64,000 nucleotides of DNA, taken from assembly GCA_964402555.1 (NCBI GenBank), contig CAYOCT010000003.1, positions 125,146-189,145 on the forward strand, read 5' to 3'. The notes beneath the pieces were generated by a model, which was given only the letters and a program-made list of their open reading frames with translations, had not been told where the DNA came from and did no database searches. The DNA comes from an uncultured Nitrospiraceae bacterium. Its GTDB lineage: Bacteria; Hydrogenedentota; Hydrogenedentia; Hydrogenedentales; SLHB01. The translations under genes and the position numbers were made by a program. Positions 16,364 through 50,914 of the stretch are shown piece after piece (position 1 is the first letter of the stretch; every line of letters begins with the position of its first letter).

Positions 16364-17296
16364 TTATGCGTGCGGATGCGCGTCGCGGTAGACCTGCTTG
16401 AGCCGATCGATGCTGACGTGGGTGTAGATCTGCGTGCTCGACAGGCTTTCATGCCCGAGCAATTCCTGGACGACACGGAGATCGGCGCCGGCATCGAGCA
16501 TGTGCGTCGCGAAGGTGTGGCGCAACGTGTGGGGCGATATTTCGTGGCGTCCTGGCAACGCCTCGCGCGCATACCTTTCGATCACGCGCTGGACGCTGCG
16601 CGTCGTCAGTGGGCCGCCGCGCCAGTTCACAAACAGCCGGTCATGCGAGGGACGGCCGAATTCCAGCCGCACGCTTAGATAGGCGCGAATTGCCGCCACG
16701 GCGTATTGCCCGAGATGCGCGATGCGTTCCTTCTTGCGTTTGCCCATGACGGCCATCGCCATGCCCGCCAGGTCCAAATGGCCCAGCCGCAGCCCGCAGA
16801 GTTCGCTCGCCCGGATCCCGCTCGAATACAACGTTTCGATAATCGCGCGGTCCCGGACGCCCAGCGGTTCCGAGACATCCGGCGCTTCGATCAGCGCCGT
16901 CACCTCGGGGATGCTCAACACGTCGGGCAGGTTGCGATCGAGCTTCGGCGACTTGACGGTCTGCGCGGGACTGTCTTCGAGTTCGCCCATGCGGACGAAG
17001 AACTTGTACGCGGCGCGGACCGCGGCCAGCTTGCGCGCCGAGGTGCGGGACGTCCCGCCGGTGGTCTGGACGTGCGCAAGAAACGCGCGGATGTCGTTGC
17101 GCGTGGCGCGCTGCAGCGCCCCGAACGAGGCCGGGGGCCGTTCCTCGTCCGGCGCGCGCTCGAAGGCCTTCGGGCCGTGGAGGGCGTAATCGCAGAACTG
17201 ATCCAGGTCGTTAAGATACGCGCGGACCGTGTGCGCGGAAAACCCGCGCTCGACTTCAAGGTACTTGACGAACCGCTCGATTTCGGCAGGATACAT
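16364..17296 (-). CDS. xerC: tyrosine recombinase XerC/XerD family
   Basis: N-terminal core-binding domain (FVKYLEVERGFSAHTVRAYLNDL). C-terminal catalytic region HTLRHTFATHMLDAGADLRVVQELLGHESLSSTQIYTHV (R..H..R..Y). An alternative upstream start exists at 17308. Confidence 0.85.
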   Translation of the reverse strand: MYPAEIERFVKYLEVERGFSAHTVRAYLNDLDQFCDYALHGPKAFERAPDEERPPASFGALQRATRNDIRAFLAHVQTTGGTSRTSARKLAAVRAAYKFFVRMGELEDSPAQTVKSPKLDRNLPDVLSIPEVTALIEAPDVSEPLGVRDRAIIETLYSSGIRASELCGLRLGHLDLAGMAMAVMGKRKKERIAHLGQYAVAAIRAYLSVRLEFGRPSHDRLFVNWRGGPLTTRSVQRVIERYAREALPGRHEISPHTLRHTFATHMLDAGADLRVVQELLGHESLSSTQIYTHVSIDRLKQVYRDAHPHA

Positions 17297-20433: not shown

Positions 20434-21465
20434 CTACGCATCCCAATCGGTGAAGCGCCGCCGCATGAGCAAATAAAGGAAGAACGGGCCGCCAAACAAC
20501 GTCGTGACGATCCCGATCGGCGTTTCGCCGGGAAGGATCTTGCGGGCCAGGATGTCGCAGAAACATAGAAATCCCGCGCCCACCAGCATGCTCACCGGCA
20601 TCAGCAGGCGGTGCCGCGATCCCGTTATACTACGCACCGCGTGCGGCACGATCAATCCGACAAACCCGATCGTGCCCACAACCGAAACCGCGATCGCCGT
20701 CAATAGCGAACCGACCAGGAAGGTGATTACTTGAAGCACGCGGACGTTCACGCCGCGGCCCGCGGCTATCTCCGCGCCGAACCCGAGTTGATCGTACTTG
20801 GGCGCCTGGAGCAATAGAACTACCGCGCACGGCAGCACGCCCACGAACAGCTTGGATACGGGCGTGTAGCCGAGGACATCGACGCCGCCCATCAGCCAGC
20901 GGTCCATCATCACAACCCGCTCCGGGTCCGCGAAGTAGCGCATGAACATGATCCCGCCGTTTGACAGCATGCCCATGGTCACGCCGCCCAGCAACAGGAC
21001 CGACGGCGAGATGCGTTCCTTGCGCGCGGCGAGCAAGTACACGATGACGATATCGATCTCGGCGAACAGGAACGCGAAGACCTGGATTGTCGGAAGCCCC
21101 AACAAGCTCGCGCTTAGTCCGTAGCCCGCGGTCAAGACGGTCGCCGTCCACGCGCCGAACGCGCCCGCGCTTGCCACGCCCAGGGTGTACGGTTCCGCAA
21201 GCGGGTTGCGCAGCATCGCCTGGAACGCGCACCCCGCCAGCGCCAAGCCGCTGCCGACGATCAGCGCTGCCAACGTCCGCGGGAGGCGCTGCTGCATCAG
21301 AATGCCGAGCATCGGGGCCTGCGACGGCGGCAGGCCCGCGCGCCACTCCGCCCACGCTTGTCCCACGCTCACCGATTCCGTGCCCACGACAAGGGTCGAC
21401 ACGATCATCGCGACGCTCGCAAGCGTCAGCGCGACAACCAGCCAGGTGTGGGTTCGACGAACCAT
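20434..21465 (-). CDS. ABC transporter permease, FecCD/BtuC family (iron-siderophore or cobalamin type)
   Basis: MVRRTHTWLVVALTLASVAMIVSTLVVG… with about 9 TM helices, as in FecCD permeases. GAGGA RBS 8-12 nt upstream. The heptamer repeat tract begins directly upstream. Confidence 0.8.
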   Translation of the reverse strand: MVRRTHTWLVVALTLASVAMIVSTLVVGTESVSVGQAWAEWRAGLPPSQAPMLGILMQQRLPRTLAALIVGSGLALAGCAFQAMLRNPLAEPYTLGVASAGAFGAWTATVLTAGYGLSASLLGLPTIQVFAFLFAEIDIVIVYLLAARKERISPSVLLLGGVTMGMLSNGGIMFMRYFADPERVVMMDRWLMGGVDVLGYTPVSKLFVGVLPCAVVLLLQAPKYDQLGFGAEIAAGRGVNVRVLQVITFLVGSLLTAIAVSVVGTIGFVGLIVPHAVRSITGSRHRLLMPVSMLVGAGFLCFCDILARKILPGETPIGIVTTLFGGPFFLYLLMRRRFTDWDA

Positions 21466-21961
21466 CAGCAAGTCCTCGTGATTTTGGATTTTGGATTTTG
21501 GATTTTGGATTGATGCACCGCCTCTGCGTAATCCGGCCTGAATACTCGAATTCGCGGGCATACCGAGAAACGTAATGCCGAATCGTGATTGCAGCGTTCT
21601 TCTTCCACCGCGAGGCAATCCAAAATCCAAAATCTAAAATCCAAAATCCCCTGCTTATTCCCCAATCTTCTCTGCCCAACTACCCCATGAACGGTCCTTG
21701 ACAAGACAAGCCAATTGCAGCGAGCGTGATGCTGAATCGTGGCAATGTACTCGTCCACCACCGCAAGGCAATCCAAAATCCAAAATCCAAAATCCAAAAT
21801 CCCCTGCTTACTCCCCAATCTTCTCTGCCCAACCGCCCCATGAACGGTCCTTGACAAGACAAGCCAATTGCAGCGAGCGTGATGCTGAATCGTGGCAATG
21901 TACTCGTCCACCACCGCAAGGCAATCCAAAATCCAAAATCTAAAATCCAAAATCCCCACCC
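21466..21961. repeat. intergenic tandem repeat block: about 3 copies of a ~150-bp unit, each terminated by a (GGATTTT)4 heptanucleotide microsatellite
   Basis: Near-identical units around 21651-21798 and 21804-21958, plus a diverged copy at 21513-21650. Heptamer tracts at 21481-21512, ~21616-21650, ~21768-21798 and ~21927-21957 (bottom strand GGATTTT, top strand CCAAAAT, with occasional CTAAAAT variants). Confidence 0.85.
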
Positions 21962-32423: not shown

Positions 32424-35400
32424 ATGCGTACGTCATCAGTGTTCCGTGGGGCGATCCTTGTCATTCTAGCGTCGATCGGGGGCATCGGATGCCCCTGGAT
32501 AGCGCCCAAAGCACAATTCGCGGCGTACCCGCAAAGCGGTATGGCCCCGCTCGAGGTCCAATTCACGGACCAGTCCGTTCCAGGCGTCGTTCCAATCTCG
32601 CAGTGGGCATGGGACTTTGGCGATGGCGGAACGAGCCGCGCTCGCAATCCCAAGCACACGTACTCCGCTTCGGGATCGTACACGGTCTCGCTTACAGTCA
32701 AGGGTTTCCTGGCCCAGAGCACGGCGGCCATACAGGACCTCATTCAGGTTTCGGGCGAGGGCGAAGGGGAAGGCGAGGGTGAGGGCGAGGGCGAGCAGCC
32801 TGTGTATTTTGTGGTCGGCGATCCGCTGAGCATCGCCCATGGCGCCTACGTGCTGCCGTTGACCAACGCGGACGATATCGCCCACGCGCGGGACGTTATT
32901 GCGGACCCGGCCAACACGGACATGCACATCGTGGTCGCGCGCATCGATCGCGGGGGAACCGAGGGAGAGTATACCAACTGCGATCCATACCATCCCGGAA
33001 ACGTCTGGTCGTGGCGCGTGACGGAATTCGTCGGGTTTGCCGACAACACCATCGAGATCCTGGATGGTTGGCCGCAATATGTCGAGGACAATCTGGATGC
33101 GTGGATGCAGGCTACCGGCGGCGAGATCGGATTCTGGAACTGCCGAGTCTTGTACGAATTGACGGACGGATGCCCCGGCGCCGAAGGCGAAGGCGAAGGC
33201 GAAGGCGAAGGCGAGGGCGAAGGCGAGGGTGAAGGTGAAGGCGAAGGCGAAGGCGAGGGTGAAGGCGAAGGTGAAGGCGAAGGCGAAGGCGAAGGCGAAG
33301 GCGAAGGTGAAGGTGAAGGCGAGGGTGAAGGTGAGGGTGAGGGCGAAGGTGAAGGTGAAGGTGAAGGTGAAGGCGAGGGCGAAGGTGAAGGTGAAGGTGA
33401 AGGTGAGGGTGAGGGTGAAGGTGAGGGCGAAGGCGAAGGCGAGTTGTTCTTGATCGGCGTCTTCCCTGCGGCGGGTTCCGGGGCCGGCGGTACACTTGTC
33501 TATATCCCCGGTGGCGGATTTGTTAGCGAGGGAACCACGCGCGTGCTGTTCGGCGACGCCGACGCGACCAACGTGCTTGTGGGTTCCTCCGATGGTGTCG
33601 ATTATGTGCAGTGTGTGACCCCGCCGCACGCGCACGGTACGGTGGATGTCACCGTCATCAATCCCGATGGCGCAAGCGCCTATCTGCCCGCCGCCTTTAC
33701 GTATCAGGACGCGCCTGCGGTGGCGTTCATCGAGCCGAATGCGGGGTCGTCGTTAGGCGGGCAGCATGTGACCGTCCGAGGCTCGGGTTTCATGAGTTCC
33801 GGCGCAACCAGGGTTACGTTCGGTGGCGCTGACGCAACGGAAGTTACCGTCATCGACGACGGTTACAATCCGCCGTTTGTCACGTGTGTCGCGCCACTGC
33901 ACGCGCCAGGCGTCGTCGACGTCACGGTCATCAATCCTGACGGGTTGCGCGGGACGCTCGCGAGGCGCTTCACGTATTTTTCACCGGTTTACATTCAACG
34001 CGATGGCCGCTATGTGACGAATGCGTCGGTCGGATACGAGGGCGGGCCGTTCTATCCCGACAAGGTGCCCTATGGCCTAAGGAATAGCCACACGGCAGCG
34101 CTAATGTACGACCTGAAGGTCACGAATGACATCCTGCAGATCGAGTTCCCGATGGGGCTTCCGCCCGTGCCCGGAATAACCGGTACCGTTGCCAGGGATA
34201 GCTATGGCACAACCTTCTTGGCGGATCTCGCGGACGATGTCGTCAACCGGCTCACTCCCGGAACATACCCGACCGGACTCCAGTTAACGAACGTCACGTT
34301 CCAGCAATTTGCTCAAGCCGAAGACATCTACCTGGACGTCCTGGATCGGAGCGAGCCGGGGCTTGAGGTCACTCCGAGGGAGGATTTCTATGCGGCGGGA
34401 CCTGTCGGCGGGCCATTCGAGCCCCTGGCGAAGATCTACCGATTCTACAATCCGGACCCGACACCGGTTGCGGTCAGCGCGTTCCTCGTGAACACGGACC
34501 GGTATCTCTCGCTTGACCCGTCGCGGTACGTGCAGGGCGTCGAAACAACCCTGGATGCGTTCCAGGCCATCGACGTTGGCGTCTATGTCGATCAGACGCT
34601 GACCGGCAGGCTCGATGCAACCGAACTTACCAACCAGCTCCGGTTCTACAACGCAACGCTGGGTAAGGTGGCCGCCGCCCGGATGATCTATGTGACCGTG
34701 TCTGAAGACGACTTCAGCGGCCTGTCGTTCGTCGACGTGCTTAACAACATAGGACAGAACACGGCATTGCTGGGCATCGCTCCGGAACCCGGTCTCCCCG
34801 AAGATGCCGACTACAATGGCCCAGGATGGTCTCCTGGGGATGCCCTGTCCGTCCATGTCAGCGGCAATGGAATGCCCGACGCAACCACGGAACTCAAGTT
34901 GATCGAGAATGTCCTCCATGATCGGTCCTTCTCCCTGCCGAACGGACTGACCCACGCGCGCGTGGCCAGCGCATGGCATGCCAATCGGCAGCGTCTTGCG
35001 CAGGACTTGGCCCCTGTGTGGGACATGTTCGAGGTCTTGCTGCCGGGGTTCCAGGATTTCCTCACCGGTATGATGATCATTGGCGACGGAGAGATGGATC
35101 TTTCAGACCCAAGCGTCGTGCGTTGGACCGGTTCGGCGGGCTTCGTTCAGGGGCTCCTGCATTCGTTCCGAGAAGTCTTCGGTATCGAAGACATCGACCT
35201 CAGCCATTACATTCGCATGCCGGAGTACTTCGCGTTCTATGGCGACGCGGACGGCGACGGCTGCAAGAACTACTTCGAGTACGTACGGAACTCGTGGGAC
35301 TTTCCCTACGATGTCATCGCGCTCGATCCCGCGTTTAACAGTGAGAACCTCTGCATGATCGATGTTGTTCCCTCGTCTAGGGCAGGAGGCACTTTCATCG

Positions 35401-38400
35401 GCTATCCGGAAGGGCCTTTCGAACCTGAGTCGTATTCGTACACGTTGACCAACCTCGCTGCCTCAGCCAGGACGTACGAGATCCGAAACAACTCTTATCT
35501 TGGGTTCAGGATGCCGGGGACGGAGATTGGAAGCCACTTTGTCCAGGGAACGCTGGAAGCCTATCAGGCTGTCGCTATCGAGGTGTACGTGGATGCCAAT
35601 GTGGCACGCACTCTGTCGGCTGGACGAAGTCACTCCGATTCCGTCCGCGTGATCAGTTCGGGCGGTTCGCTGTTTATCGGCGATAATCCCCCGTTCTTCC
35701 TCGACCTACTTGCGCCGGGAACAAGTTCCTTGCGCGTCACACCCGAGACCGATTTCCAGACCACGTTTCAGGCGGGCAGTTCGCTGGCGAGCACGTGCGC
35801 AACCTATGCGCTCGAAAACGTGACGTCAGCGACGATACGGTACGCGGTAAACCGCGACCATGCCGGAATCGCGTTCAAGCCTAGCCCGGGCGGCGTGCTT
35901 ACCAACGTCCTGTCGGGCGCCTTGGGCGCGATGCAATCCGTCGATATCCGCGTGTATCTCGATCCGTCGTCGCCGAATTGGAACTCGCCCGGGGAATACA
36001 GCAACGCCGTGACGTTCGTAGACGGGACGTTGAACGCCGTGGCGGCCACGCGGGGCGTCTATGTGGAAGTGACGCCCGCGCAGCCCGTGCTCGATTACGA
36101 TTTCACCGACTACTTCAACCGGGTACGCAACAATTCATTCGTCGCCTTGCTGCCCCCCGAGTATGGAAGCATCATGCTGATGCTGGATCCGAATACCGCG
36201 GACTTCAACGGCCCTTCGTCAATGAAGCTGAGTCCGCTCCAGCTCAATATTCAAGGCAACGGCATGCTGGATTGCCTGCACGAACTGGCGCTTGTCCAGG
36301 CGGTGCTAAATGACCCGAACTTTTCGCTGCCGAACGGCCTCACGCATCAGCGCGTCATCGACGCTTGGAACCAGAATATTGGCCAGTTTGCTGCGGATGT
36401 CGGCAGCTACTGGCCGATACTCGGTGCGTTGATGGACGGCCTGCCTCAGATTCTCAACGGCATGATGATCCTGGGAGACGGATCGGCGCAGACCTCGGAT
36501 CCCAACATGGTGATTTGGGACGGTTCCGCTGGATTCATCCAAGCGTTGATGAGCCTTCTCGGCGGGTACATCACGAATCCGACGATCGACCTCGACACCT
36601 ATGGCCGGTTGCCGGAGTTCTTCTCGAAAGATGGCGATGCCGATGGCGATGGATGCTCGAACTATGAAGAGTTCCTCGCCTACGGGTCCAATCCCGCGGT
36701 CTATGTCGCCAACGCGCTGAACCCCGACGTTCATCCGAGTGACTGTGCCGGTGAGGGCGAAGGTGAAGGTGAGGGTGAAGGTGAGGGTGAAGCCGCGTTC
36801 TGCGATTTCTGGCCGCTGGCAGTCGGGAATCAGTGGAACTGGAATGATGGCCAGGACAACGCCGAGACCTTCGAGATAGTCGATTTCTTCGTGGCGAACG
36901 GGTTCCGTGCGTGGCAGATGTACAACATGTTCTATGGGTTCGTCACAACGACCACGGTGCAGAATCTCGTCTTCGTGGACGGGTGGCTGTACGTTACGCC
37001 GGACATTGCGGACCTCGATGCGCTGCCCGCGATCACGGGCAGTCTCAAGGGATGGGTTCCCGAGGTCATGACGTGTGGCCAGTCGTTCTACTCGCCGTTG
37101 TTCGGCAAGACGATTACTCCGATGTGCTCGGGCGATACACTCTCCCTGTCGGTCGAAGGTGTGCCTGAGCCGCTGGTGCTCGAGCGCGGTCTCGGTCCGA
37201 TGAACTTCGGCGGGCTGGGCGGCACATACTCGCAGACGATTGTCGGCGGATGCGACACGGACACGGAGGACTTCAGCGCAGACCCCGGCGAGCAGCCGTT
37301 GAGCGGCGGCTCGTTTCCGATGGTCCAGTGGGTAAGCGGCGAGACGAGTACGGGTACGATCGATCTGAAGCCCGCAAGTCCCACCGTTCAGGATGTCCTC
37401 TACTTCAATCTTCCCACGAGCGTGTTCGGGCTTGCGGGTCTTGCGGAAGCCGCCGCGGGCGGCCATCCGAACCTCGTAGTCGACGCGCTTACCCATCGCG
37501 TCGAGTTGCGGTTCGTTCCGCCGGCCGCGCCGCCGGCAATTACGCTGTGGGATCCGGTGTGCGGTATGGAAGGCCACTTCGGCCCCATCGAAGCGGGCGA
37601 CTGGGAGTTCTTCTGCGACAATGCCCTTGTGCCCTTCTCGATGACGTTCCACGTCAATCCGGCAGAAGGCCAGGGCCAAGTCGCTTGGATTCCGGGAGAA
37701 ACGAGTCCAGGCGCATGGATGGTTCTGCCTCCGGCGCCCGTCGAATCGAGTCCGGTACGGTTTGAAGGCCCCATTCCCCTTCAAGGCAACGCGTGCCTCG
37801 CGACGGTCGCGGCGGGAGGACGTCCCGAACTCCATATCGATCAGGCCGCGCACACCATCGAATTGTGGTACCGCCCGCCCGCGCCGGACGCCTGCATCGA
37901 GGTCTTCGATCCCGTGTGCGGCCTGCGCGGCACGTTTGGATACTTGGAGGCCGGCACGTGGACTTTCTATTGCACGAGTCCGTTCTCGACGTTCAATCTT
38001 TCGTTCGAGGTCGCGCCCGCGGGCGGCGGTCCACCGGCGCACATGTTCTGCGACTACCTGCGCAGTCTCCTGAGCAATCAGCTCGTGGCGATGCTGCCCT
38101 CGGAATTCGCTGGCTCGATATGGCAACTTACGCCGGAGAATGTGGACTGGAACGGGGAATGGTCGATTAGCGCGGACGGCATTGCAACCTTGGGCTACAA
38201 TGGCAACGGCTTGCTCGACTGTTACCACGAGATGAAACTCGTCGAAATCGTCCTGAACGATCCTAACTTCCGGCTGCCCAACGGACTGACGCATGCACTC
38301 GTGCAGCAGGCTTGGGACACGAACGAAGCGCAGTTTGCCCGCGATGTAGGTTCGTACTGGGCGTTGATGCGGGCTCTGGTCGACGGATTGCCGCAAATCG

Positions 38401-41400
38401 CTAACGCCTACATGATCCTGGGCGACGGTTCCGCCACGCAAGACCCCGTTACAGGCGAAATCGTTTCCGAAGGTTCCGCGGGCCTGGTCCAGGCATTGAT
38501 GTTGACGCTCGGCTCGAACATTACGAACGCCCACATCGACCTCGCCAACTACGGGCGTTTGCCGCAGTACTTCTCGAAGTATGGCGACGCGGACGGCGAT
38601 GGATGCTCGAACTACGAAGAATTCCTGGCCTATGGTTCTGATCCCGATCGGTACGCTGCCAACGCGCTCAATCCCCGCGTGCATCCCATTTCATGCAGTG
38701 GGGAAGGAGAGGGCGAGGGAGAAGGAGAAGGCGAGGGTGAGGGTGAGGGTGAAGGTGAAGGTGAAGGTGAACCGCAAGGACTGTTCTGCGGCTACATCGA
38801 TCAGCTTCGCTCGAACTCGCTGCTTCAAATGCTCCCGGCCGAGTACCAACCGTTCCTGAACCTGATCGTGCCGGAAGCAGTCGATATCAACGGCAGCGCG
38901 TGGCTCGATCAGAACGGCAGCGCCACCTTCGATCTCCAAGGCAACGGCATGTTCGATTGCGTCTACGAGTTGCGGCTTGTCGAGGCAGTCATGGCTGACC
39001 CGGCGTTTGCGTTGCCCAATGGCTTGACCCACGCTTTGGTCCAACAGGCGTGGAACACCAGCGAGGCCCAGTTCCAGGCGGATATCGGCAGCTACTGGAG
39101 CTTGGCCGGCGCGCTTGTGCCCGGGTTGAAGGAACTCCTCAAAGGCTACATGTTGCTCGGCGATGGCTCGGCCGATCTCTCCGATCCGAATCACATTACG
39201 TGTCAAGGTTCGGCCGGGTTGATCCAGGCGCTGGTTTTCCTGATTGGCGACTATGCGATGAATCCCAACATCGACCTGAGCCAGTATGGGCGTCTGCCGG
39301 AGTACTTCTCGAAGGACGGCGACGCCGATGGCGACGGATGCTCGAACTACGAAGAGTTCCTCGCCTATGGTTCGGACCCGTTGGTCTACGTGGCCAACGC
39401 GCTCGATCCGAACGTTCATCCGGCGCTGTGCAAAGGCGGATCCGAAGGCGAAGGCGAGGGAGAGGGAGAAGGTGAAGGTGAAGGCGAGGGAGAGCCGCAG
39501 GGACAGTTCTGCGGCTATATCGATCAGCTTCGTTCGAACTCCCTCGTCCAGATGCTTCCCCCGGAGTATCTGCCCTATCTGGATCTGATCGTGCCGGAGG
39601 CAGTCGATATCAACGGCAGTGCGTGGCTCGATCAAAACGGCAGCCCGACCTTCGACCTCCAAGGCAACGGCATGCTCGATTGCGTTTACGAGTTGCGACT
39701 CGTCGAAGCCGTCATGGCTGACCCGGCGTTTGCGTTGCCCAATGGCTTGACCCACGCTTTGGTCCAACAGGCGTGGAACACCAGCGAGGCCCAGTTCCAG
39801 GCGGATATCGGCAGCTACTGGAGCTTGGCCGGCGCGCTTGTGCCCGGGTTGAAGGAACTCCTCAAAGGCTACATGTTGCTCGGCGATGGCTCGGCCGATC
39901 TCTCCGATCCGAATCACATTACGTGTCAAGGTTCAGCCGGGTTGATTCAGGCGGTGGTCTTCCTGATCGGCGACTATGTAGCGAATCCCAACATCGATCT
40001 GAGCCTGTACGGCCGCCTGCCGGAGTACTTCTCGAAGGACGGCGACGCTGATGGCGACGGCTGCTCGAACTACGAAGAGTTCCTCGCCTACGGTTCGGAC
40101 CCGCTGGTCTACGTGGCCAACGCGCTCGATCCGAATGTCCATCCGGCGTTGTGCAAAGGCGGATCGGAAGGTGAAGGCGAAGGCGAGGTCGTCCCGCTGT
40201 GCGACTTTCTGCCCCTCGCCGAAGGGAATGAGTGGAACTTCAATATACCTCTGATGGTGGGATCTGGCGGGCGCTTGGCAGTGACGGACCAGACCGAGTG
40301 GAATGGCGTCCGCGTGTGGGAGGTCGAAGAGGACACCTACGGCGACTTGACGACTTCTTCGTCGCTCTTGTACATGGCCTTCGTCGACGGATGGCTTTGG
40401 GCAACGAGCGCCGCCAATGACATCTACCAGCTTCCCGCGATCACGGGCAGTTTTCGACAGATGCTTCCCGAGACTGTTGTCAGCGGACAATCGTATTATC
40501 TTCCCGCGTTGTCCGTGACCGTCACGACGGCCCTGGAAAGCCCCGATGTCCTGAGCGCCCAGGTGCAGTACATGGGGCTGACCTTGAGCATACTCCTGGG
40601 CCGAGGCCTTGGATTCATCGACAGCGCTGTCATAGACGTGACCAGCGCGAGCATTGTGGGCGGCTGCGGCGACGGATGGAGCGGCAGCGGTGAGGGCGAA
40701 GGAGAGGGAGAAGGCGAAGGCGAGGGCGAGGGAGAGGGAGAAGGAGAAGGAGAAGGAGAACTTCCCAAGACGTTCTGCAACTACTTCCAGATGGTCCACG
40801 ACAACACCCTGCTCCAGGTGCTCCCGTCCGAGTATTTCTTCATCACGAACCTGTTGTCGCCCGATCAAGCTGATCTCAACGGAGACTCGTACGTGCAGTT
40901 GAATCCGTCGACCGAGTTCGGCATCAACGGCAACGGTATGCTCGATTGCGTCTACGAGATGAAGCTGATCGAGAAGGTCCTCAACGATCCGGAATTCGAC
41001 CTGCCCAACGGGTTGACCTATGCGCTCGTCCAGGCCGCATGGAACAAAAACGCTGCGCAGTTCGCGGCGGATGTCGGGCAATACTGGGGCTTGCTCGGCT
41101 CGCTTGCGAACGGCTTGCCGCAGATCCTCAACGCGTACATGATTCTCGGCGATGGTTTCGCGCAGCAGGATCCTTCGACCGGACGGATCGATTGCACCGG
41201 ATCGGCGGGATTGATCCAGGCCATCATGCTGTTGCTCGACGGCCAAATCGCCAACAGCCACATCGATCTCGATACGTACGGGCGCCTGCCGCAGTATTTC
41301 GCGAAGGACGGCGATGCCGACGGCGACGGTTGCACGAACTACGAAGAGTTTCTTGCGTACGGTTCCGATCCGGCGCTGTACGCAGCCAACGCCCTCGACC

Positions 41401-41942
41401 CGAACGTGCATCCCGATGCGTGCTCCGGTGAAGGCGAAGGAGAGGGCGAGGGTGAAGGTGAGCTCCTTGCAGTGTGCGACTACTGGCCTCTGGCCAAAGG
41501 CAACTACTGGCGGTGGCACACCGGTATGATTGACGCGGATGGCGGCGAGATTGCCGTGACCGATTCGAGCGTTGTCAACGGATTCAAGACGTGGGAAGTG
41601 AAGCTCTACGCTGACACAATCGCCGGGTTGTTGCCTCAACTGGACGTCTTTGTCGTCTTCGTCGACGGCTGGCTCTACGGCACGGATGTGCGCGCCGACC
41701 TCGACGGCTTGCCCGTCGTCGGTGGCGGGATGCAGCGCATCTGCCCGCAGACCATGCAATCCGGCCAAACGTTCACGTCGGATTACTTCGGCTGGCCAGT
41801 GACGGTCAGCGGCGGCGCATCTACGGTCCTGGTTTCGGTCAGTGGGTTCGGACCACTGTTCATCTTGTCCCAAGGCCAGGGACCGACAGCCGGTATACTC
41901 GGCGCTTTCGATCCTCCGGTTATCGTCGGCGGGTGCGAGTAG
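32424..41942 (+). CDS. giant (3172 aa) modular cell-surface lipoprotein: PKD domain, two IPT/TIG domains, repeated Ca-binding (DADGDG) modules, (Gly-Glu)n linkers
   Basis: AGGAGG RBS then ATG at 32424 ([23 protein letters not shown], lipobox). PKD-like segment (WAWDFGDGG…HTY…GSYTVSLTV). An 88-codon pure (GE)n run at ~33178-33443 and about 8 shorter GE linkers. IPT-like domains ([17 protein letters not shown]…[10 protein letters not shown]). Six copies of an approximately 215-aa module ending …[21 protein letters not shown]…NALNPxVHPxxC. Three copies of an approximately 160-aa module ([16 protein letters not shown]…). Two copies of an approximately 90-aa module. The ORF track starts at an upstream in-frame Met at 32376. 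Confidence 0.85.
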
Positions 41943-44135: not shown

Positions 44136-47100
44136 CTATGGGCGATGCCGCGCAACGGCGCGAGCGCCGATCGCGCCGGCCAGCATCATCGCCGCGATCA
44201 GGGCCGCCAGCCCTCCTGCCGGCAGCGCCGGCCCGACCATGAACGGCGCGCCAGGCCCGACGCCGGGAGCCAGGTGGCCTTCCGAGTCGGAAGCGGTCGC
44301 GGGCTGGATTCCGACGCTGATGTTGCCTTCACCGGCGATCGCTTCGATGCTGATCACATAGGTATTCGCGTCGATCATGGTGACGGCCGGAACACCCGTG
44401 GCGGTGCCGGTGGCGTTCAGGATCACATCGGAAGCATCAAGCGTCACGGTCTCGGCGCCCGTATACGTGACCAGGTACGTGACGGGGCCTGAGGTCGTGT
44501 AGTACGCCGAAGGCGGGCTGAGGCTGACCACCGGACCGGTAGATACAATCGTAAATACCTCGCCGCCGGTGAATGTACCATTGCCCGGGCTGAACCCTCC
44601 GAGGACATGGCCGCTGAAATCGAGAATCGAATCGTTGTCGATGACATCGAGCCGGATCGTGCCTTCCCCTGTGCCTCGATCGACGTTAACGATGAAGCTG
44701 TGGAGGCCGCCCGACACGCTCGCGACAAAGGCGCCGCTGACGTCGCCGGTGGTCGTGAGCGCGAAATCCGAATACGGCCACGACGTATCCACGCCGAAAA
44801 CATTGTCGGTAAATGTAACGAGGAACGTCACATAGGGCGCGTTGGTCGGGCTGGCGCCGAGCCGCGTTACGGAGGCGACCATGGGCGGTACGAACAGGCC
44901 CCAGAGTTCGCGGCCGTGAATGTACTCGGCCGCGCTGAAGTACAGACGGCCACCCGCCGCAGCCAGGTTGCGCGGCGCGGAACCCGCCGGACCGGCGTTG
45001 ATGTCCGTTACCAGCGCAGTGCCTTCCTCCGTATTGTTGGTCTGCCACAGCTCGGTGCCGTGCGCGCCGTCATCGGCGGCGAAGTACACGAGTCCGCCGA
45101 GAGTCGCGAGGTTCCGGGGCGCCGAACTGCCTGGGCCGGCGTTGATGTCTTTCAGCAACAGGGTCCCGTAGGTGGTGCCGTTGGTGTGCCACAGTTCGCG
45201 GCCGCTGACGCCGTCGTTGGCCGCGAAGTAGATGGTTCCGTCGATACTCAACAGCCCTTCGGGCGCCCCGGAATTCGATCCCGGCCAGATATCCTTGACC
45301 ATGACGGTGCCATAATCCGTGCCGTCGCTTTTCCAAAGCTCGATGCCGTGCACGCCGTCATTCGCGGCGAAATACGGCTTGCCGTTGCGTTCGACCATGC
45401 CTTGGGGCGACGAGTCCGCCGGCCCGGGGTTGATGTCCATCACGAGAACCGTGCCTGGGGTCGTGCCGTCCGTGCGCCAGAGTTCGACGCCGTGGGTCGT
45501 GTCGCGCGCGGAGAAGAAGACCATCCCGTTCGCCAAGGTGAACAACTGCGGCAGGGAATCCCCGGCGCCCGTGTAGATGTCTCTCAGCATGAACGTGCCC
45601 GCGTCGGTGCCGTCGCTTCTCCAGGGCTCGATACCGTTCGTACGATCGTTGGCCGCGAAGTACAGGACGCCGCCGCACGAGGCCAGCAACTGCGGACTCG
45701 ACGACTGCCCGGCGGCCGGAGCGATGTCCTTGACCAGCACCGTGCCCTCCGGAGTGCCGTCGCTCTTCCAGAGTTCGTAGCCCGCGTTCGTGTCGTAGGC
45801 GCTGAAGAAGAGCTGATTGCCCACCACCGTCAGATAGGTCGGGAACGAATCGCTGGTCCCGGGCCGGATGTCCTTGACCAGCACGGTGCCGCTCTGCGTG
45901 CCGTCGCTCTTCCAAAGCTCCGCGCCTCGCGTGCCGTCGTTCGCGGTGAGATATAGCACGCTGTTCATGACGACCAGATAGTTCGCGTTCGAACTGCTGG
46001 AGCCGGGATAGATGTCCTTGACCATCGTGGTGCCGCCGGCCGTGCCGTCGCTTCGCCACAACTCGACCCCGTGAACGCCGTCGTTCGCGCTGAACATCAG
46101 AATTCCGTTCAGGTCGGTCAAAGACTGCGGCAAGGAATCCGAGGTCTCCGGACGGATGTCCGACACGAGGACCGTTCCGCCCGCCGTGCCGTCCGTGCGC
46201 CACAGTTCGATTCCGTGGGATCCATCGTTCGCGCTGAAATACATGACCCCGTTCATCGGGGTAAACTGGCGGGGAAGCGAATTGCCGGAGCCCGGCAGGA
46301 TGTCGCGGACCTGCGCCGTCCCTGCGGCGGTGCCGTCGCTCTTCCAAAGTTCCGTGCCCGCGGCGCCCGTGCTTGCGCTGAAGTAAAGTTCCGAACCAAG
46401 TGCCTCGATGCCTTGCGGATCGCCGTTGGCGGTGCCCGGATCGATATCGTACACGAGCGCCGTCCCTTCGGCGGTGCCGTCGCTCTTCCACAACTCGTAC
46501 CCGGTGATGCCGTCCGTGGCATTGAAATACACGGCCCCGCCGATCACCGCTAGATCGGACGGATTGGAATCGGGCACGCCCGCGTTAATATCCGCGACAA
46601 GGACCGTGCCCTCTGCGGTGCCGTCGCTCTTCCAGAGTTCGACGCCCTCGGTGGCATTCAGCGCGGCGAAGTACAAATTCGCTCCGGCCACAACGAAGTA
46701 CTGCGCGTCGGAGCTCTCGCTGCCTTCATTAATATCCTTGACCATCGCCGTACCGGCGTCGGTGCCGTCGCTCGTCCAGAGTTCGTAGCCGTGCGCGCCA
46801 TCGTCGGCTTTGAAGTAGGCCTTGCCGTTGAGCTCGGTGAGGTACTGCGGATACGAGGACGCCGTCGGATGAATGTCTTTGACCATCGTTGTACCGGCCT
46901 CAGTGCCGTCCGTCTTCCAGAGCTCGAAGCCGTGCGTGCCGTCGTTGGCCACGAAGTACAACACGCCGCCAATCACGGTCAGCGAACGCGGGGACGACGA
47001 AATAGGACCCGGATTGATGTCTTTCACGAGCGCCGTGCCCGCATTGGTGCCATCGCTCTTCCAGAGTTCGTAGCCATGAACCCCGTCCGTGGCCATGAAG

Positions 47101-47648
47101 AACACAAGGCCGTTATACGCTTCCAGGTTCTGCGGGAAGGACCCGGTGCTTCCGGGAGCGATGTCGCTGACTTGCATGGTGCCTTCAGGGGTTCCGTCGG
47201 TCTTCCACAATTCCTGGCCGCCCACCGCGTCGATAGCCCTGAAGTACATTGTGGATCCCACCACCGTGAATTCCCACGGCTCCGATCCGTTAACGCCGGG
47301 ATTGATGTCTTTCACGAGTTGCGTGCCAAGCGCGGAACCGTCAGAGCGCCATAGCTCTGTTCCGGTGATGCCGTCCGTCGCGCTAAAAAGGAGGAAGCCG
47401 TTCATCAATGTCATCAACTGCGGATTGGCCGGCGCGGGCGCGGCGGCGCCGGAGTTGATGTCCTTAACGATGTCCGCCGCGGTGATTGCTCCACCAACCG
47501 ATGGGAGCAGCGTCAACAGGAGCACACATGCCGCCACGGCGCCACGCCGCAGGCGAAGTTCCTTCTTGCCAGACCATACCGGGATCTCGCCATGCCGCTC
47601 TCGCGCGCTCGTGACCGACTTCATCATTCGAACTCCTGTGCTGACCAT
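44136..47648 (-). CDS. ELWxxDGT-repeat protein (about 20 repeats) with signal peptide and C-terminal sorting-signal-like tail
   Basis: Repeats of the form …ELW(K/R)(S/T)DGTxxGTxLVKDIxPG… of about 50 aa, throughout. N-terminal signal (AVAACVLLLTLLPSVGGA). C-terminus GPALPAGGLAALIAAMMLAGAIGARAVARHRP. The exact start (47648 or the Met at 47627) is uncertain. Confidence 0.85.
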   Translation of the reverse strand: MVSTGVRMMKSVTSARERHGEIPVWSGKKELRLRRGAVAACVLLLTLLPSVGGAITAADIVKDINSGAAAPAPANPQLMTLMNGFLLFSATDGITGTELWRSDGSALGTQLVKDINPGVNGSEPWEFTVVGSTMYFRAIDAVGGQELWKTDGTPEGTMQVSDIAPGSTGSFPQNLEAYNGLVFFMATDGVHGYELWKSDGTNAGTALVKDINPGPISSSPRSLTVIGGVLYFVANDGTHGFELWKTDGTEAGTTMVKDIHPTASSYPQYLTELNGKAYFKADDGAHGYELWTSDGTDAGTAMVKDINEGSESSDAQYFVVAGANLYFAALNATEGVELWKSDGTAEGTVLVADINAGVPDSNPSDLAVIGGAVYFNATDGITGYELWKSDGTAEGTALVYDIDPGTANGDPQGIEALGSELYFSASTGAAGTELWKSDGTAAGTAQVRDILPGSGNSLPRQFTPMNGVMYFSANDGSHGIELWRTDGTAGGTVLVSDIRPETSDSLPQSLTDLNGILMFSANDGVHGVELWRSDGTAGGTTMVKDIYPGSSSSNANYLVVMNSVLYLTANDGTRGAELWKSDGTQSGTVLVKDIRPGTSDSFPTYLTVVGNQLFFSAYDTNAGYELWKSDGTPEGTVLVKDIAPAAGQSSSPQLLASCGGVLYFAANDRTNGIEPWRSDGTDAGTFMLRDIYTGAGDSLPQLFTLANGMVFFSARDTTHGVELWRTDGTTPGTVLVMDINPGPADSSPQGMVERNGKPYFAANDGVHGIELWKSDGTDYGTVMVKDIWPGSNSGAPEGLLSIDGTIYFAANDGVSGRELWHTNGTTYGTLLLKDINAGPGSSAPRNLATLGGLVYFAADDGAHGTELWQTNNTEEGTALVTDINAGPAGSAPRNLAAAGGRLYFSAAEYIHGRELWGLFVPPMVASVTRLGASPTNAPYVTFLVTFTDNVFGVDTSWPYSDFALTTTGDVSGAFVASVSGGLHSFIVNVDRGTGEGTIRLDVIDNDSILDFSGHVLGGFSPGNGTFTGGEVFTIVSTGPVVSLSPPSAYYTTSGPVTYLVTYTGAETVTLDASDVILNATGTATGVPAVTMIDANTYVISIEAIAGEGNISVGIQPATASDSEGHLAPGVGPGAPFMVGPALPAGGLAALIAAMMLAGAIGARAVARHRP

Positions 47649-47941
47649 GTAAATGCCCTCTAGTCATGACGCAACAGCTCACCCCCTGGCCGCCGGTGAG
47701 ATGAGACCACAATGAAAAATGTCAACATATTATATCACCTAATACAAAAAATGTCGACAAGATTCTAAGTTCAACACAACACATTGCTATATAATCACTT
47801 AGTATCTTCGACCCGCTCTTGCCCAAGCGGTAATTTCACGAATAGCAATGAAGAAGATCCAGATATATAGAGGACAGAATTAGGAATGGTGCGAATACGG
47901 GATTTTTCGATACTCTTGCCGCACGACAAGGAGCCGAAACC

Positions 47942-49057
47942 TTAGTCCACCAATTGAAGGCCGATCTCGTTGTTCATCTCGAAGCCCAACGCAGTAGGAC
48001 GAATCGCCAGCCCATCGTCCTCGATGAGACCGCGGGCGGCGAGCGTGGCGAGGTCAGTTCCGAAGTCCGAGAGGAGTGCTGTGCCGAAACGCCGCGCGTA
48101 AGCCGAATGGCGAATGCCGTCCCGAAGGCGCAGATGCTGGATCACGGTCTCGACGCGAATCTCGCGCGGGCTTAAGCGCAACGCTTCCATCTTGCCGCCG
48201 GGATCGCGAAGGTACGCTTCAAGCGCGGCGTGGTTGCGCGCGCGCACGCCGTCGAGAAACGAGTAGGCCGCGGGACCAAGTCCCGCGTAGGCTTCGTTGT
48301 GCCAGTAGATCAAATTGTGCCGGCACGTGTAACTGGGCCGCGCGAAGTTCGAGATCTCGTAGCGTGTGAAACCCTCGAGCAGCGCGTCCGCCCGTCGATA
48401 GAGCGCAAGCCACGTGGCCTCGTCCACGGCCTCGCCCGCGCGATCGCCGAAGGGAGTTCCTGACTCATAGGTTAATCCATAGGTGGAGATATGCGTAGGT
48501 TGATAATCCTGCGCCTCGATCAACGTTGCGTCCCAGGCATGGACCGGCATTGCGCCGAAGATCAGGTCCATGCTCCAATTGTCGAAACGTTCTGCGATAC
48601 ACGCGCACGCGCGGCGGGCGGTGTCGGCATCGTGGCGCCGGCCGAGATAGCGAAGCGCGCCGTCGTCGAAGCTCTGCACACCGAGACTCACGCGGTCGAT
48701 CCCGAGCGCGCGCCACGCTTGCGCCAGAGGCGCGGTAACGTCGTCGGGATTGGCCTCGATCGTCTTTTCGGCTCCTTCGAGATCGAAGCGCGCATGCAGG
48801 GCATCGAGGATGCGTTCGAGTTGCCTCGCTTCGAGGAGCGAGGGCGTCCCGCCTCCGAAGAACACGGTTCCGGCCTCGCGCGGCCCCTCGAACGCCGCGA
48901 TCTCGTTGCAGACCGCTGCGACGAAGGCCTCAGGCGGCGCTTCGGGCACGGCCTGGCTTACAAAATCGCAGTAAGGACAGCGCGTCCTGCAAAAGGGAAT
49001 GTGAAGGTACACGCCGAGGCGATTTTGGATTTTGGATTTTGGATTTTGGATTGACAT
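47942..49057 (-). CDS. hemW: radical SAM heme chaperone / coproporphyrinogen-III-oxidase-like HemW(HemN) family protein
   Basis: CxxxCxxC radical-SAM motif in LHIPFCRTRCPYCDF, then a HemN-like core. N-terminal codons 3-12 (SIQNPKSKIQN) are encoded by a (CCAAAAT)4 heptamer tract at 49021-49052. An alternative TTG start is at 49087. Confidence 0.8.
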   Translation of the reverse strand: MSIQNPKSKIQNRLGVYLHIPFCRTRCPYCDFVSQAVPEAPPEAFVAAVCNEIAAFEGPREAGTVFFGGGTPSLLEARQLERILDALHARFDLEGAEKTIEANPDDVTAPLAQAWRALGIDRVSLGVQSFDDGALRYLGRRHDADTARRACACIAERFDNWSMDLIFGAMPVHAWDATLIEAQDYQPTHISTYGLTYESGTPFGDRAGEAVDEATWLALYRRADALLEGFTRYEISNFARPSYTCRHNLIYWHNEAYAGLGPAAYSFLDGVRARNHAALEAYLRDPGGKMEALRLSPREIRVETVIQHLRLRDGIRHSAYARRFGTALLSDFGTDLATLAARGLIEDDGLAIRPTALGFEMNNEIGLQLVD

Positions 49058-49149
49058 CGGGTCTATCCGGTCGCGCTGCCGAGACAACGGCGTAGTTCTA
49101 CATAAGCAGGAGAAGCTAAAAATAGAGCAACTGGCAGAAGCGAGAAGAG

Positions 49150-49220
49150 CGAGCGAAAAACGGGGACTGACTCGCTTTTCGTCGGTTTGAAAAGCGTGTC
49201 TGTCCCCGCTTTTCGCGGCG
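49150..49220. terminator. repeated hairpin element between the cimA 3' end and the hemW 5' end; likely intrinsic terminator
   Basis: GCGAAAAACGGGGACTGACTCGCTTTTCG…AAAAGCGTGTCTGTCCCCGCTTTTCGC has stem-loops followed by T-runs. A related copy in inverse orientation is at 55985-56050. Confidence 0.4.
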
Positions 49221-49261
49221 TTTCGCCGCAGAATACGATACCGTCAGAACGATTCAGTTTG

Positions 49262-50848
49262 CTACGCGCGGATGCCGCGGACGCGCAAGAGCTTGTACTC
49301 GATGCTGTCGACGAGCGCCTTATACGAAGCGGAGATGATGTTCTCGGACACGCCGACGGTGCTCCAGGATTCCTCGAGGTCGCTCGACTCGATCACGACG
49401 CGGGTCTTGGCTCCGGTCGCGGCCCGGGCGTCGACGATGCGGACCTTGTAGTCTTCCAGGTGCACGTCGCGCAGCTCGGGATACACCGCTTCGAGCGCTT
49501 TGCGTAGCGCGTTATTCAACGCGTCGACCGGACCGTGGCCTTCGGCGACGGTATGCTTGGGCGCGCCATCGGGCATGGTCAGCAGGATCGTCACGACCGA
49601 AACGGCGGACGGCGCGGACGGCTGCTGGATGACCGTGACGTGGAATCCGTCGAGATTGAAGAACACGGGGAACTCGCCTTTGGCGCGGCGGAGGAGGAGT
49701 TCGAGCGAGGCGTCGGCCCCTTCGAATTCGTAGCCCTGCCGTTCGAGTTCCTTGACTTGTTCGAGAATGCGTTTCGTCTCGGGGCTGTCCGGATCGAGAA
49801 CGACGCCGAGTTCGGCGGCCTTGTGCAGCAAGCTCGCGCGGCCCGCCATTTCGCTGACGGTGATCCGCGTCCGGTTGCCGACGAGGTCGGGGTCGCAGTG
49901 CTCGTAGCTCGTCTTCTGTTTCTTAACCGCGTCGGCGTGCATGCCGGCCTTGTGCGTGAACGCGTCGCGGCCGACGTAGGGATCGGAGTCGCGCGGCGGC
50001 ATATTCGCAAGTTCGGACACGAGGTGCGAGACGTGGGTCAGGCTCGCGAGTTGGTCGGGGCGCAACACGGGGATGCCCATCTTAAGCTGCAAATCGGGGA
50101 TGATGGTGCAGAGGTTCGCGTTGCCCGTACGCTCGCCGAATCCGTTGATCGTGCCCTGCACCTGAACCGCGCCGGCGGCCACGGCCACCAGGCTGTTAGC
50201 GACGGCGCACCCGGAATCGTTGTGCACGTGAATGCCGATCTGCGCGCCCGGGATGCGTTCGCGGACGGCTAGCGTCGCGGTGCGGATCTCGTCGGGCAGG
50301 CGGCCGCCGTTCGTGTCGCACAAGACCAGGACTTCCGCCCCGGCGCGCGCGGCATGTTCGAGGGCCGTGAGCGCGTACTCCGCGTCCTCGGCATAGGCGT
50401 CGAAGAAATGCTCGGCGTCGAGAAATACGCGGCGGCCTTGCGCGCGAAGAAACGAGACGGATTCGTCGATGATGACGAGGTTGTTGTCGAGCGAGGTGCG
50501 CAGGACCTGGGCAACGTGGCGCGGCGAGGTCTTGGCGAAGATGGTGACCACGTCGGTGTTCGCGGCGACCAGGCCCTTGAGATTGGCGTCGTCTTCGACG
50601 GCCGACTTCGTATGCCGCGTGCTGCCGAACGCGACAACCGTAGCGCTGGCCAGTTCGAAGTCGCGCACGCGGACGAAGAACTCGGCGGCCTTGGGATTCG
50701 AGCTAGGTTGGCCGCCCTCGATATAGCGCACGCCGAGGCCGTCGAGCGCGCGCACCACGCGCAACTGGTCCTCGGACGAGAACTTGATGCCGGGACCTTG
50801 GGCGCCGTCGCGCAAGGTCACGTCATAGATATCGACGAGCGATGACAC
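49262..50848 (-). CDS. cimA: (R)-citramalate synthase / 2-isopropylmalate-synthase family (LeuA/CimA)
   Basis: N-terminus (V)SSLVDIYDVTLRDGAQG matches the HMGL-like DRE-TIM start. Approximately 528 aa with the C-terminal LeuA-dimer regulatory domain typical of CimA. GTG start with a GGAG RBS; the ORF extends to 50908. Confidence 0.75.
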   Translation of the reverse strand: MSSLVDIYDVTLRDGAQGPGIKFSSEDQLRVVRALDGLGVRYIEGGQPSSNPKAAEFFVRVRDFELASATVVAFGSTRHTKSAVEDDANLKGLVAANTDVVTIFAKTSPRHVAQVLRTSLDNNLVIIDESVSFLRAQGRRVFLDAEHFFDAYAEDAEYALTALEHAARAGAEVLVLCDTNGGRLPDEIRTATLAVRERIPGAQIGIHVHNDSGCAVANSLVAVAAGAVQVQGTINGFGERTGNANLCTIIPDLQLKMGIPVLRPDQLASLTHVSHLVSELANMPPRDSDPYVGRDAFTHKAGMHADAVKKQKTSYEHCDPDLVGNRTRITVSEMAGRASLLHKAAELGVVLDPDSPETKRILEQVKELERQGYEFEGADASLELLLRRAKGEFPVFFNLDGFHVTVIQQPSAPSAVSVVTILLTMPDGAPKHTVAEGHGPVDALNNALRKALEAVYPELRDVHLEDYKVRIVDARAATGAKTRVVIESSDLEESWSTVGVSENIISASYKALVDSIEYKLLRVRGIRA

Positions 50849-50914
50849 GTGTTCCAGCTCCTGATCTCCAAATGCCGAAGAGAGGCGTCTGCCGTTCGAG
50901 AACGGCAATCTACA

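Follow-up and report, generated by a model that had tools for sequence, protein, structure and literature searches.

What does a perfect heptanucleotide repeat do inside the first codons of a housekeeping gene? The question is raised by a stretch of 64,000 nucleotides from an uncultured Nitrospiraceae bacterium (GTDB phylum Hydrogenedentota; positions 125,146 to 189,145 of contig CAYOCT010000003.1, assembly GCA_964402555.1), hereafter the window, in which the gene for the radical-SAM haem chaperone HemW opens with four CCAAAAT units. An earlier note, made from the letters of this DNA, had proposed that gain or loss of one unit could switch HemW expression off and on. Our results do not support a phase-variable haem chaperone, and indicate instead that the tract is probably a stable, translated copy of a widespread heptamer cassette of fixed length, with no slippage switch. 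Although dispersed heptamer repeats have been on record since 1990, their origin and function are still not understood.

The heptamer cassette and the start of HemW

The hemW coding sequence is a 371-aa open reading frame (ORF) on the minus strand of the window (47942..49057), which opens with ATG at 49057-49055 and ends at 47942, and whose product starts MSIQNPKSKIQNRLGVYLHIPFC. On sequence grounds this ORF is HemW: it scores 211.8 bits against NCBIfam TIGR00539, above the equivalog cut-off of 205.4, with an alignment that starts at V16; Pfam detects the Radical_SAM (PF04055) and HemN_C (PF06969) domains; and the CxxxCxxC motif of HemW is present at C23, C27 and C30, all of them invariant in a 44-sequence alignment. 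The AlphaFold model has a confident fold (mean predicted local distance difference test score, pLDDT, of 94.4) and, with its invariant catalytic residues kept, the protein is otherwise intact. Its best homologues are annotated as Candidatus Hydrogenedentes, the nearest non-self protein among 5.8 billion being 68% identical, and its protein cluster has a single member.

On the plus strand, Tandem Repeats Finder (TRF) identifies at 49021-49052 a repeat of period 7, with 4.6 copies of the unit GATTTTG and 100% matches. The tract reads ccgATGtCAATCCAAAATCCAAAATCCAAAATCCAAAATCgcctcggcGTGtaccttcacattcccttttgc on the minus strand, within a wider region ...gacccgATGtCAATCCAAAATCCAAAATCCAAAATCCAAAATCgcctcggcGTGtaccttcacattcccttttgc..., and its four full CCAAAAT units are codons 3-12 of hemW, which agrees with the position given in the earlier note. 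Sequence, TRF and the deletion test described below define it as a 33-nt cassette, CAAT(CCAAAAT)4C, lying in frame in codons 2-13 (49021..49053, minus strand) or, in an equivalent register, as AAT(CCAAAAT)4CG (49020-49052, minus strand); the former is equivalent to five AATC cores with CAA spacers. A chance origin of the tract is excluded, with 15 matches in the window to CCAAAATCCAAAAT (two units, up to one mismatch) vs. 0.03 expected, and 10 matches to a 25-mer of the tract (up to three mismatches) vs. 0.00 expected. Within the 64 kb, two loci together contain five copies of the complete 33-mer; all of them have four units, and two carry a single C-to-T change.

From the reading frame, the orthologs and the predicted structure, we infer that hemW very probably starts at ATG 49057 (49055..49057, minus strand) and that the tract adds 11 translated residues in frame. 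Removal of exactly 33 nt, in either register, leaves ATG TCC (or TGC) CTC GGC GTG TAC CTT CAC, and the resulting product, MSLGVYLHIPFC, begins M-S/C-L-G-V-Y-L-H-I-P-F-C, which is the family norm to within one residue. An N-terminus of the form M-x-G-x-Y-x-H-x-P-[FY]-C is present in 76 of 120 HemW orthologs, and that of P0113 begins MKLGVY; in the window gene, CGC occupies the usual Met position, immediately 3' of the tract. The earlier note had called this the only ATG that gives a sensible HemW N-terminus. It is not the sole in-frame start, with TTG 49087 upstream and GTG 49012 downstream. The earlier note had also asked whether the N-terminal extension is conserved; none of the 120 orthologs has a PKSKIQN-like N-terminus.

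Initiation at the downstream GTG (V16; 49010..49012, minus strand), 8 nt 3' of the cassette, would remove L14 and G15, that is, the beginning of strand beta-1, which spans residues 14-20 of the AlphaFold model; residues 1-10 are disordered in that model, with pLDDT <50. G15 is conserved in at least 90% of the 44 aligned sequences, and none of the 120 orthologs starts nearer to the Y-x-H-x-P motif than an offset of 6. The loss of L14 and G15, the N-termini of the orthologs and the result of the 33-nt deletion thus make a downstream start, with the tract in the 5' untranslated region, less likely. The predicted mRNA fold leaves most of the tract unpaired and places GTG 49012 within a stem-loop: the nine bases at the 3' junction of the cassette, CAAAATCGC (49018-49026), have their exact reverse complement, GCGATTTTG, in codons C30-D31-F32-V33 (TGC GAT TTT GTA; 48961..48969, minus strand), and the 9-bp stem predicted between them encloses the GTG. 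The Phe codon within GCGATTTTG is the rare TTT (3/17), and three relatives have TTC.

Translation from ATG 49057 through a discrete 33-nt cassette placed in frame right behind the start codon would give HemW approximately 11 extra hydrophilic, disordered N-terminal residues (IQNPKSKIQN-R) before beta-1, and the cassette would be a tolerated, stable insertion. The sense-strand cassette RNA folds to 0.0 kcal/mol (ViennaRNA), and a fully unstructured, A-rich stretch beside an AUG that is not preceded by a Shine-Dalgarno motif may help initiation, as a side effect. Other heptamer leaders have been proposed to keep the initiation region single-stranded in this way (PMC4679880; bioRxiv 10.1101/2022.06.06.494920).

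The CCAAAAT family across genomes

We scanned genomes for (CCAAAAT)3, with one genome per species, and found at least 120 loci; these counts are lower bounds, and the demand for three error-free units favours intact arrays. The loci come from cyanobacteria, Chloroflexota, Acidobacteriota, Planctomycetota, Verrucomicrobiota, Bacteroidota/Rhodothermales, lineages of the candidate phyla radiation (CPR), Omnitrophota, Poribacteria and others, and the tract is also present in IMG/VR contigs. Several of the cassette-bearing IMG/VR contigs (L121, L123, L140, L145, L152 and L159) are labelled as giant-virus metagenome-assembled genomes (GVMAG), and may be either viral or mis-binned bacterial DNA.

Among the matches listed, several single source genomes contributed multiple loci, and length and end phase showed a narrow pattern. 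Counting units with one mismatch allowed in each, 95 of 143 arrays have four units, with 23 arrays of three, 17 of five, four of six, two of seven and one each of nine and ten. AAT precedes the first full unit in approximately 90% of these arrays, while C follows the last unit in 57% and is in turn followed by G in 43%. The exact 32-mer is found in 43 of the 120 genome loci listed. Sheer abundance is not what sets CCAAAAT apart: the 39 loci of (CCAAAAT)3 in IMG/VR compare with 42, 14 and 13 for the composition-matched (CCAATAA)3, (CACAAAT)3 and (CAACATA)3, and we rejected the idea that CCAAAAT is uniquely abundant. The control heptamers in viral contigs vary widely in array length, the longest reaching 80 nt, and their end phase is not fixed. 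Short tandem arrays in the CCAAAAT loci are dominated by period 7 (229 arrays, vs. 2, 23, 6 and 3 for periods 5, 6, 8 and 9). This agrees with the known excess of heptamers, which, in the account of Mrazek (2007) given in PMC4679880, are an over-represented class of long simple sequence repeats (SSRs) in many bacteria.

The arrays lie in the sense orientation of genes. An ATG-initiated ORF of at least 80 aa starts between -3 and +40 nt of the tract for 37 of 123 arrays in the sense orientation and for 6 in reverse. Arrays at the 5' ends of genes number 18 forward and 2 reverse in each GC class, and those deep in long ORFs 20 forward and 0 reverse in genomes with GC <0.55, a subset on which we relied because ORF classification is noisy at high GC. 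Two settings recur. In the first, the tract ends mostly 3-9 nt before a start codon, at the position of the ribosome-binding site. In the second, it is in frame inside a gene and is read as ...NPKSKIQNPKS...: for instance, a single Pfam domain match spans the tract in TrmD (residues 23-230), in an AMP-binding enzyme (residues 22-382) and in MnmE, and in a xanthine-dehydrogenase-like protein the tract falls in the linker that joins the Fer2_2 domain to the hammerhead domain. N-terminal analogues of the hemW case, with an ATG 4-6 nt 5' of the tract, occur at L046, L092 and L095. Within genes of genomes with GC <0.55, 15 arrays are in frame and none is frameshifted; the four exceptions to this rule are all in high-GC genomes and may be gene junctions.

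As the unit is 7 nt long, the sense strand is free of stops and yields one and the same PKSKIQN-type peptide whichever frame is read, which makes frequent translation in frame possible. The antisense strand would encode the hydrophobic ILDFGFW. The contrast between a hydrophilic sense peptide and a hydrophobic antisense one suggests that sense copies may be tolerated in loops, linkers, N-termini and 5' leaders, and may persist for that reason.

A long-term record of one copy is found in mnmE. The Dolichospermum copy (L019) is the identical 33-mer (CAA TCC AAA ATC CAA AAT CCA AAA TCC AAA ATC), in frame within the G4-G5 loop of MnmE. In protein searches, LQSKIQNPKSKI or point-mutated forms of it appeared in MnmE throughout the Nostocaceae, in proteins that nearly all have 464 aa. 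In 31 metagenomic mnmE loci (among L231-L310), whose loop length is uniform because they were chosen for a G4-G5 loop of 35 aa, the only variation in the tract consists of point changes, both synonymous and non-synonymous. For the tract, synonymous identity amounts to 0.78, against 0.67 for the flanks; this ranks 11th among 144 windows, which is no outlier, and we rejected selection on the tract at the nucleotide level. More distant cyanobacteria have no tract and a loop of 31-34 instead of 35 aa; one example of such a loop, VQYPKSINHIVK, has a PKS core in common with the tract peptide. With tract-free loops almost equally long, a simple insertion of 11 codons was also rejected, and the tract in mnmE replaced sequence and was not merely added. 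The mnmE block is thus old, being ancestral to the Nostocaceae, frozen in length and decaying by point substitution like ordinary coding DNA.

Two further explanations failed. A G-quadruplex does not account for the four units, since ViennaRNA, when allowed to form such structures, predicts only a hairpin of -2.6 kcal/mol for the G-rich strand and no quadruplex. Pairing of AUCCAA with the 3' tail of 16S rRNA reaches -7.0 kcal/mol, a value equalled by 42% of shuffled cassettes. CCAAAAT arrays often abut other heptamers (CAATCCG, CAATCGT, GGCAAGT, AAACCCA, AATTACC and AACTCCT), forming composite blocks, as at L006, L015, L022, L040, L052, L060, L075, L105, L110 and L118.

Alternative readings and the surroundings of the window copies

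Several observations weigh against a stable, translated cassette in hemW. Stability of copy number at hemW itself is drawn from other loci and other genomes, and arrays of three and five units do occur in the family, which points to unit changes, or to other block sizes, on evolutionary time scales. Abundance in IMG/VR is not above that of one control heptamer, so that the view of CCAAAAT as a special cassette rests on length and phase. Neither ATG 49057 nor GTG 49012 has a Shine-Dalgarno motif, whereas many genes in the window have GGAGG-like motifs approximately 8 nt upstream; and GTG 49012, 8 nt past the tract, fits the spacing between tract and start that is seen in the family.

These last points belong to the alternative that fares best, in which HemW would start at GTG 49012 (M-Y-L-H-I-P-F-C), the cassette would be an untranslated leader that replaces the Shine-Dalgarno sequence, and the upstream ATG would be fortuitous. 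It draws on the first ATG of a long ORF lying mostly 3-9 nt past the tract elsewhere in the family, on the 37 sense vs. 6 reverse arrays, on the copy in the same window that is a leader of a FecCD-type gene, on the TIGR00539 alignment that begins only at V16, and on published heptamers (TAACTGA and those of Nostoc) that also lie just before start codons (PMC4679880; bioRxiv 10.1101/2022.06.06.494920). We nevertheless consider it unlikely. A GTG start would delete L14 and the conserved G15 from beta-1, would be closer to Y-x-H-x-P than in any of the 120 orthologs, and would lie in a predicted stem-loop; moreover, an in-frame ATG whose 33-nt deletion restores the family N-terminus would hardly arise by chance.

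Phase variation, by slipped-strand mispairing that adds or drops a 7-nt unit and so toggles HemW between ON (4 or 7 units) and OFF, is in our view quite improbable. Its premises are sound: an error-free tract within the ORF is built of units whose length is not divisible by 3, and only 1, 4 or 7 units keep hemW in frame. The earlier note was correct that a change of one unit shifts the frame (three or five units end the ORF after 30 or 44 aa); the on/off switch that it derived from this is not supported, the tract belonging to a family capped in length at approximately 33 nt. There is also a precedent in neuO of the Escherichia coli K1 prophage CUS-3, where a variable-number tandem repeat of the heptanucleotide AAGACTC in the 5' coding region gives expression only at repeat numbers divisible by 3 (PMC13001214). 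Both genes have a 7-nt unit in the first codons of the ORF, with every third copy number in frame and a full-length product abolished by a change of one unit, and arrays of three and five units are known elsewhere in the CCAAAAT family. However, neuO tracts are long, with 3-53 units and a mode of 20; OFF alleles are found in 65.6% of complete genomes, and a strain with 21 repeats is a mixed population in which approximately 7% of cells have one unit more or fewer (PMC13001214). The hemW tract, at 28-33 nt, has just four units, and the five copies in the window are all equal in length. The family as a whole has a sharp mode at four units and a fixed end phase, copies lie in frame in housekeeping genes, with no frameshifted carrier at low GC (15 vs. 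0), and the mnmE copy has kept its length across the Nostocaceae. Furthermore, neuO is a phage-borne gene for surface modification, whereas HemW is a housekeeping haem chaperone, outside the contingency classes of surface, host or phage interaction and restriction-modification genes, and GTG 49012 could still give some expression from an out-of-frame allele.

The possibility that the five AATC/GATT cores, at 7-bp spacing, form an operator for a protein that co-regulates hemW and the FecCD-type ABC transporter is very improbable: both tract-bearing loci of the window are related to haem or iron, tandem heptads are known operator architectures (TTTTGAT in the ctxAB promoter, SARP heptameric repeats), and inverted tract pairs exist in divergent intergenic regions, but the bias to the sense strand and the copies in coding regions of unrelated genes from many phyla indicate constraints that act on the RNA or the protein, the hemW copy is inside an ORF and a scan for sigma-70-type consensus elements found no promoter around it (48900-49400), the genes that follow the tract in other genomes have diverse functions, and no candidate DNA-binding protein was identified.

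The four other window copies of the cassette are in the ABC transporter locus where the earlier note had also seen the heptamer, an operon of Peripla_BP_2, ABC_tran and FecCD genes. The second copy (21480..21512, minus strand) is in the 5' leader of the FecCD-type permease gene, 14 nt 5' of its ATG (21465) and with a GAGGA motif between. The third (21616..21648, plus strand), in which unit 3 is CTAAAAT, is inverted relative to the operon; the fourth (21769..21801, plus strand) has no mismatches and is 100% complementary to 21480-21512, with which it forms inverted repeat I1; and the fifth (21922..21954, plus strand) again has CTAAAAT as unit 3. Copies three to five are carried by a 153-bp tandem repeat of 2.3 copies (21598..21957), which sits between the ATPase and permease genes. 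By eye, this repeat and the hemW copy have no flanks in common, the cassette alone being shared. Complementarity between the three antisense copies and the sense copy of the permease leader is 97-100%. For the operon RNA, a duplex of approximately 33 bp is predicted (-88 kcal/mol for 231 nt, z = -5.9; region 21440-21960), and this modelled duplex could sequester the permease leader or serve as a substrate for an RNase specific to double strands.

Around hemW, a strong hairpin followed by a T-run (49153-49217) lies between a citramalate/isopropylmalate-synthase-like gene (49262-50908, minus strand) and hemW. It looks like a terminator, although a simple terminator scan made no call there; an Rfam E-value scan of 48500-49600 gave only sub-threshold microRNA-like matches, on this hairpin. 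The intergenic region 3' of hemW (47650-47940) is AT-rich (GC 0.37-0.45) and has strong sigma-70-like elements (TTGTCG...GATATAAT; TTGACA) that face the gene for a 1170-aa ELWxxDGT-repeat protein (44136-47648, minus strand). The CCAAAAT tract is absent from the hemW loci of three relatives (L228-L230), where the neighbourhood is recO-lepA-lepB-lepB-hemW; the window hemW sits outside this synteny. In the Hydrogenedentes relative L229, no CCAAAAT array was found in the 16.6 kb examined; there is another heptamer array, (AGACCCT)4, at 16396-16423, also of four units. The window also contains long hexamer arrays, unrelated to the heptamer cassette: TCGCCT x35.8, CGAAGG x43.5 and many GAAGGN (416-630, 33182-33442 and 32424-41942), of which at least those within 32424-41942 are inside a 3172-codon ORF and would encode Gly/Glu-rich repeats.

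Relation to other heptamer repeats and significance

The CCAAAAT tract consists of tandem direct repeats of 7 nt, with many copies per genome, a preference for about four units, a bias in strand and position, and a patchy distribution among lineages. Having all the defining features, it can be assigned to the dispersed heptamer direct repeats. The closest published cases each resemble it in part. The TAACTGA repeats of marine Beggiatoaceae, cyanobacteria and Bacteroidetes (MacGregor 2015, PMC4679880) are also dispersed direct heptamers, with 2-6 copies per set, in forward orientation a few nucleotides before start codons and overlapping the ribosome-binding position, and they too have a scattered phylogeny and no known mechanism of transfer or binding partner. 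They differ in the sequence of the unit and in a narrower range of phyla; besides, TAACTGA has stops in all forward frames, which prevents read-through, whereas CCAAAAT has no stop in any frame and is frequently translated within genes. The GGGNATC repeats of Xanthomonas and Nostoc (Rehm et al. 2015, PMC4692102) share the preference for four units, and their G-rich strand is antisense, up to 50 bp upstream of ORFs, as the GGATTTT strand of CCAAAAT is antisense to the gene. In GGGNATC, however, the four units are explained by a G-quadruplex, whereas none is predicted for CCAAAAT and its sense strand is unstructured.

Likewise, the cyanobacterial short tandemly repeated repetitive (STRR) sequences and the heptamers of Nostoc PCC 7120 ((TTCAAAA)3-4 and GAC(C/T)AAT) have 3-8 contiguous units, within 30-100 nt of the start codons of a dozen or more genes; they sometimes overlap the start codon, and a translational or regulatory role has been proposed for them and not resolved (bioRxiv 10.1101/2022.06.06.494920). 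Their units are different, and each has been described within single genomes. The TTTTGAT repeats of the ctxAB promoter of Vibrio cholerae are tandem heptads with a near-identical unit (GATTTTT vs. GATTTTG), upstream of a gene whose expression is reported to be affected by copy number; they are confined to one locus, where they act as an operator within the promoter to which transcription factors bind, whereas the CCAAAAT tract is transcribed, strand-biased, dispersed and translated in many genes. The sequence of the CCAAAAT array appeared in no paper of the literature searched. Compared with known heptamers, it is new in its unit sequence, in the range of phyla that carry it, in the fixed length of 32-33 nt with its end phase, and in the frequent translation in frame.

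For the origin of a block of fixed length and phase in so many lineages we tentatively offer one scenario, rather unlikely to hold as a whole: CAAT(CCAAAAT)4C would be no microsatellite grown in situ, but a block of 32-33 nt copied into or over the sense strands of genes by a templated or recombinational process. It would have spread both inside single genomes and from one genome to another, in at least ten phyla, and would then have been frozen in length and either co-opted as a leader that does without a Shine-Dalgarno motif or tolerated as a frame-independent PKSKIQN linker. If this were true, the cassette would be the smallest known mobile sequence module compatible with protein coding, and would offer a concrete mechanism for the long-unexplained excess of heptamer repeats in bacteria.

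For the window itself, an unsupported phase-variable haem chaperone gives way to a testable annotation of HemW from ATG 49057 with an 11-residue tail encoded by the repeat. For the family, the length of 32-33 nt and the end phase shared across phyla, the strict sense orientation and the frequent translation in frame are handles that allow direct questions to be asked, namely whether the arrays are inserted as blocks and whether they act as substitutes for the Shine-Dalgarno sequence. In the annotation of genomes, such tracts should not be taken by default for frameshift hot spots or signals of pseudogenes.

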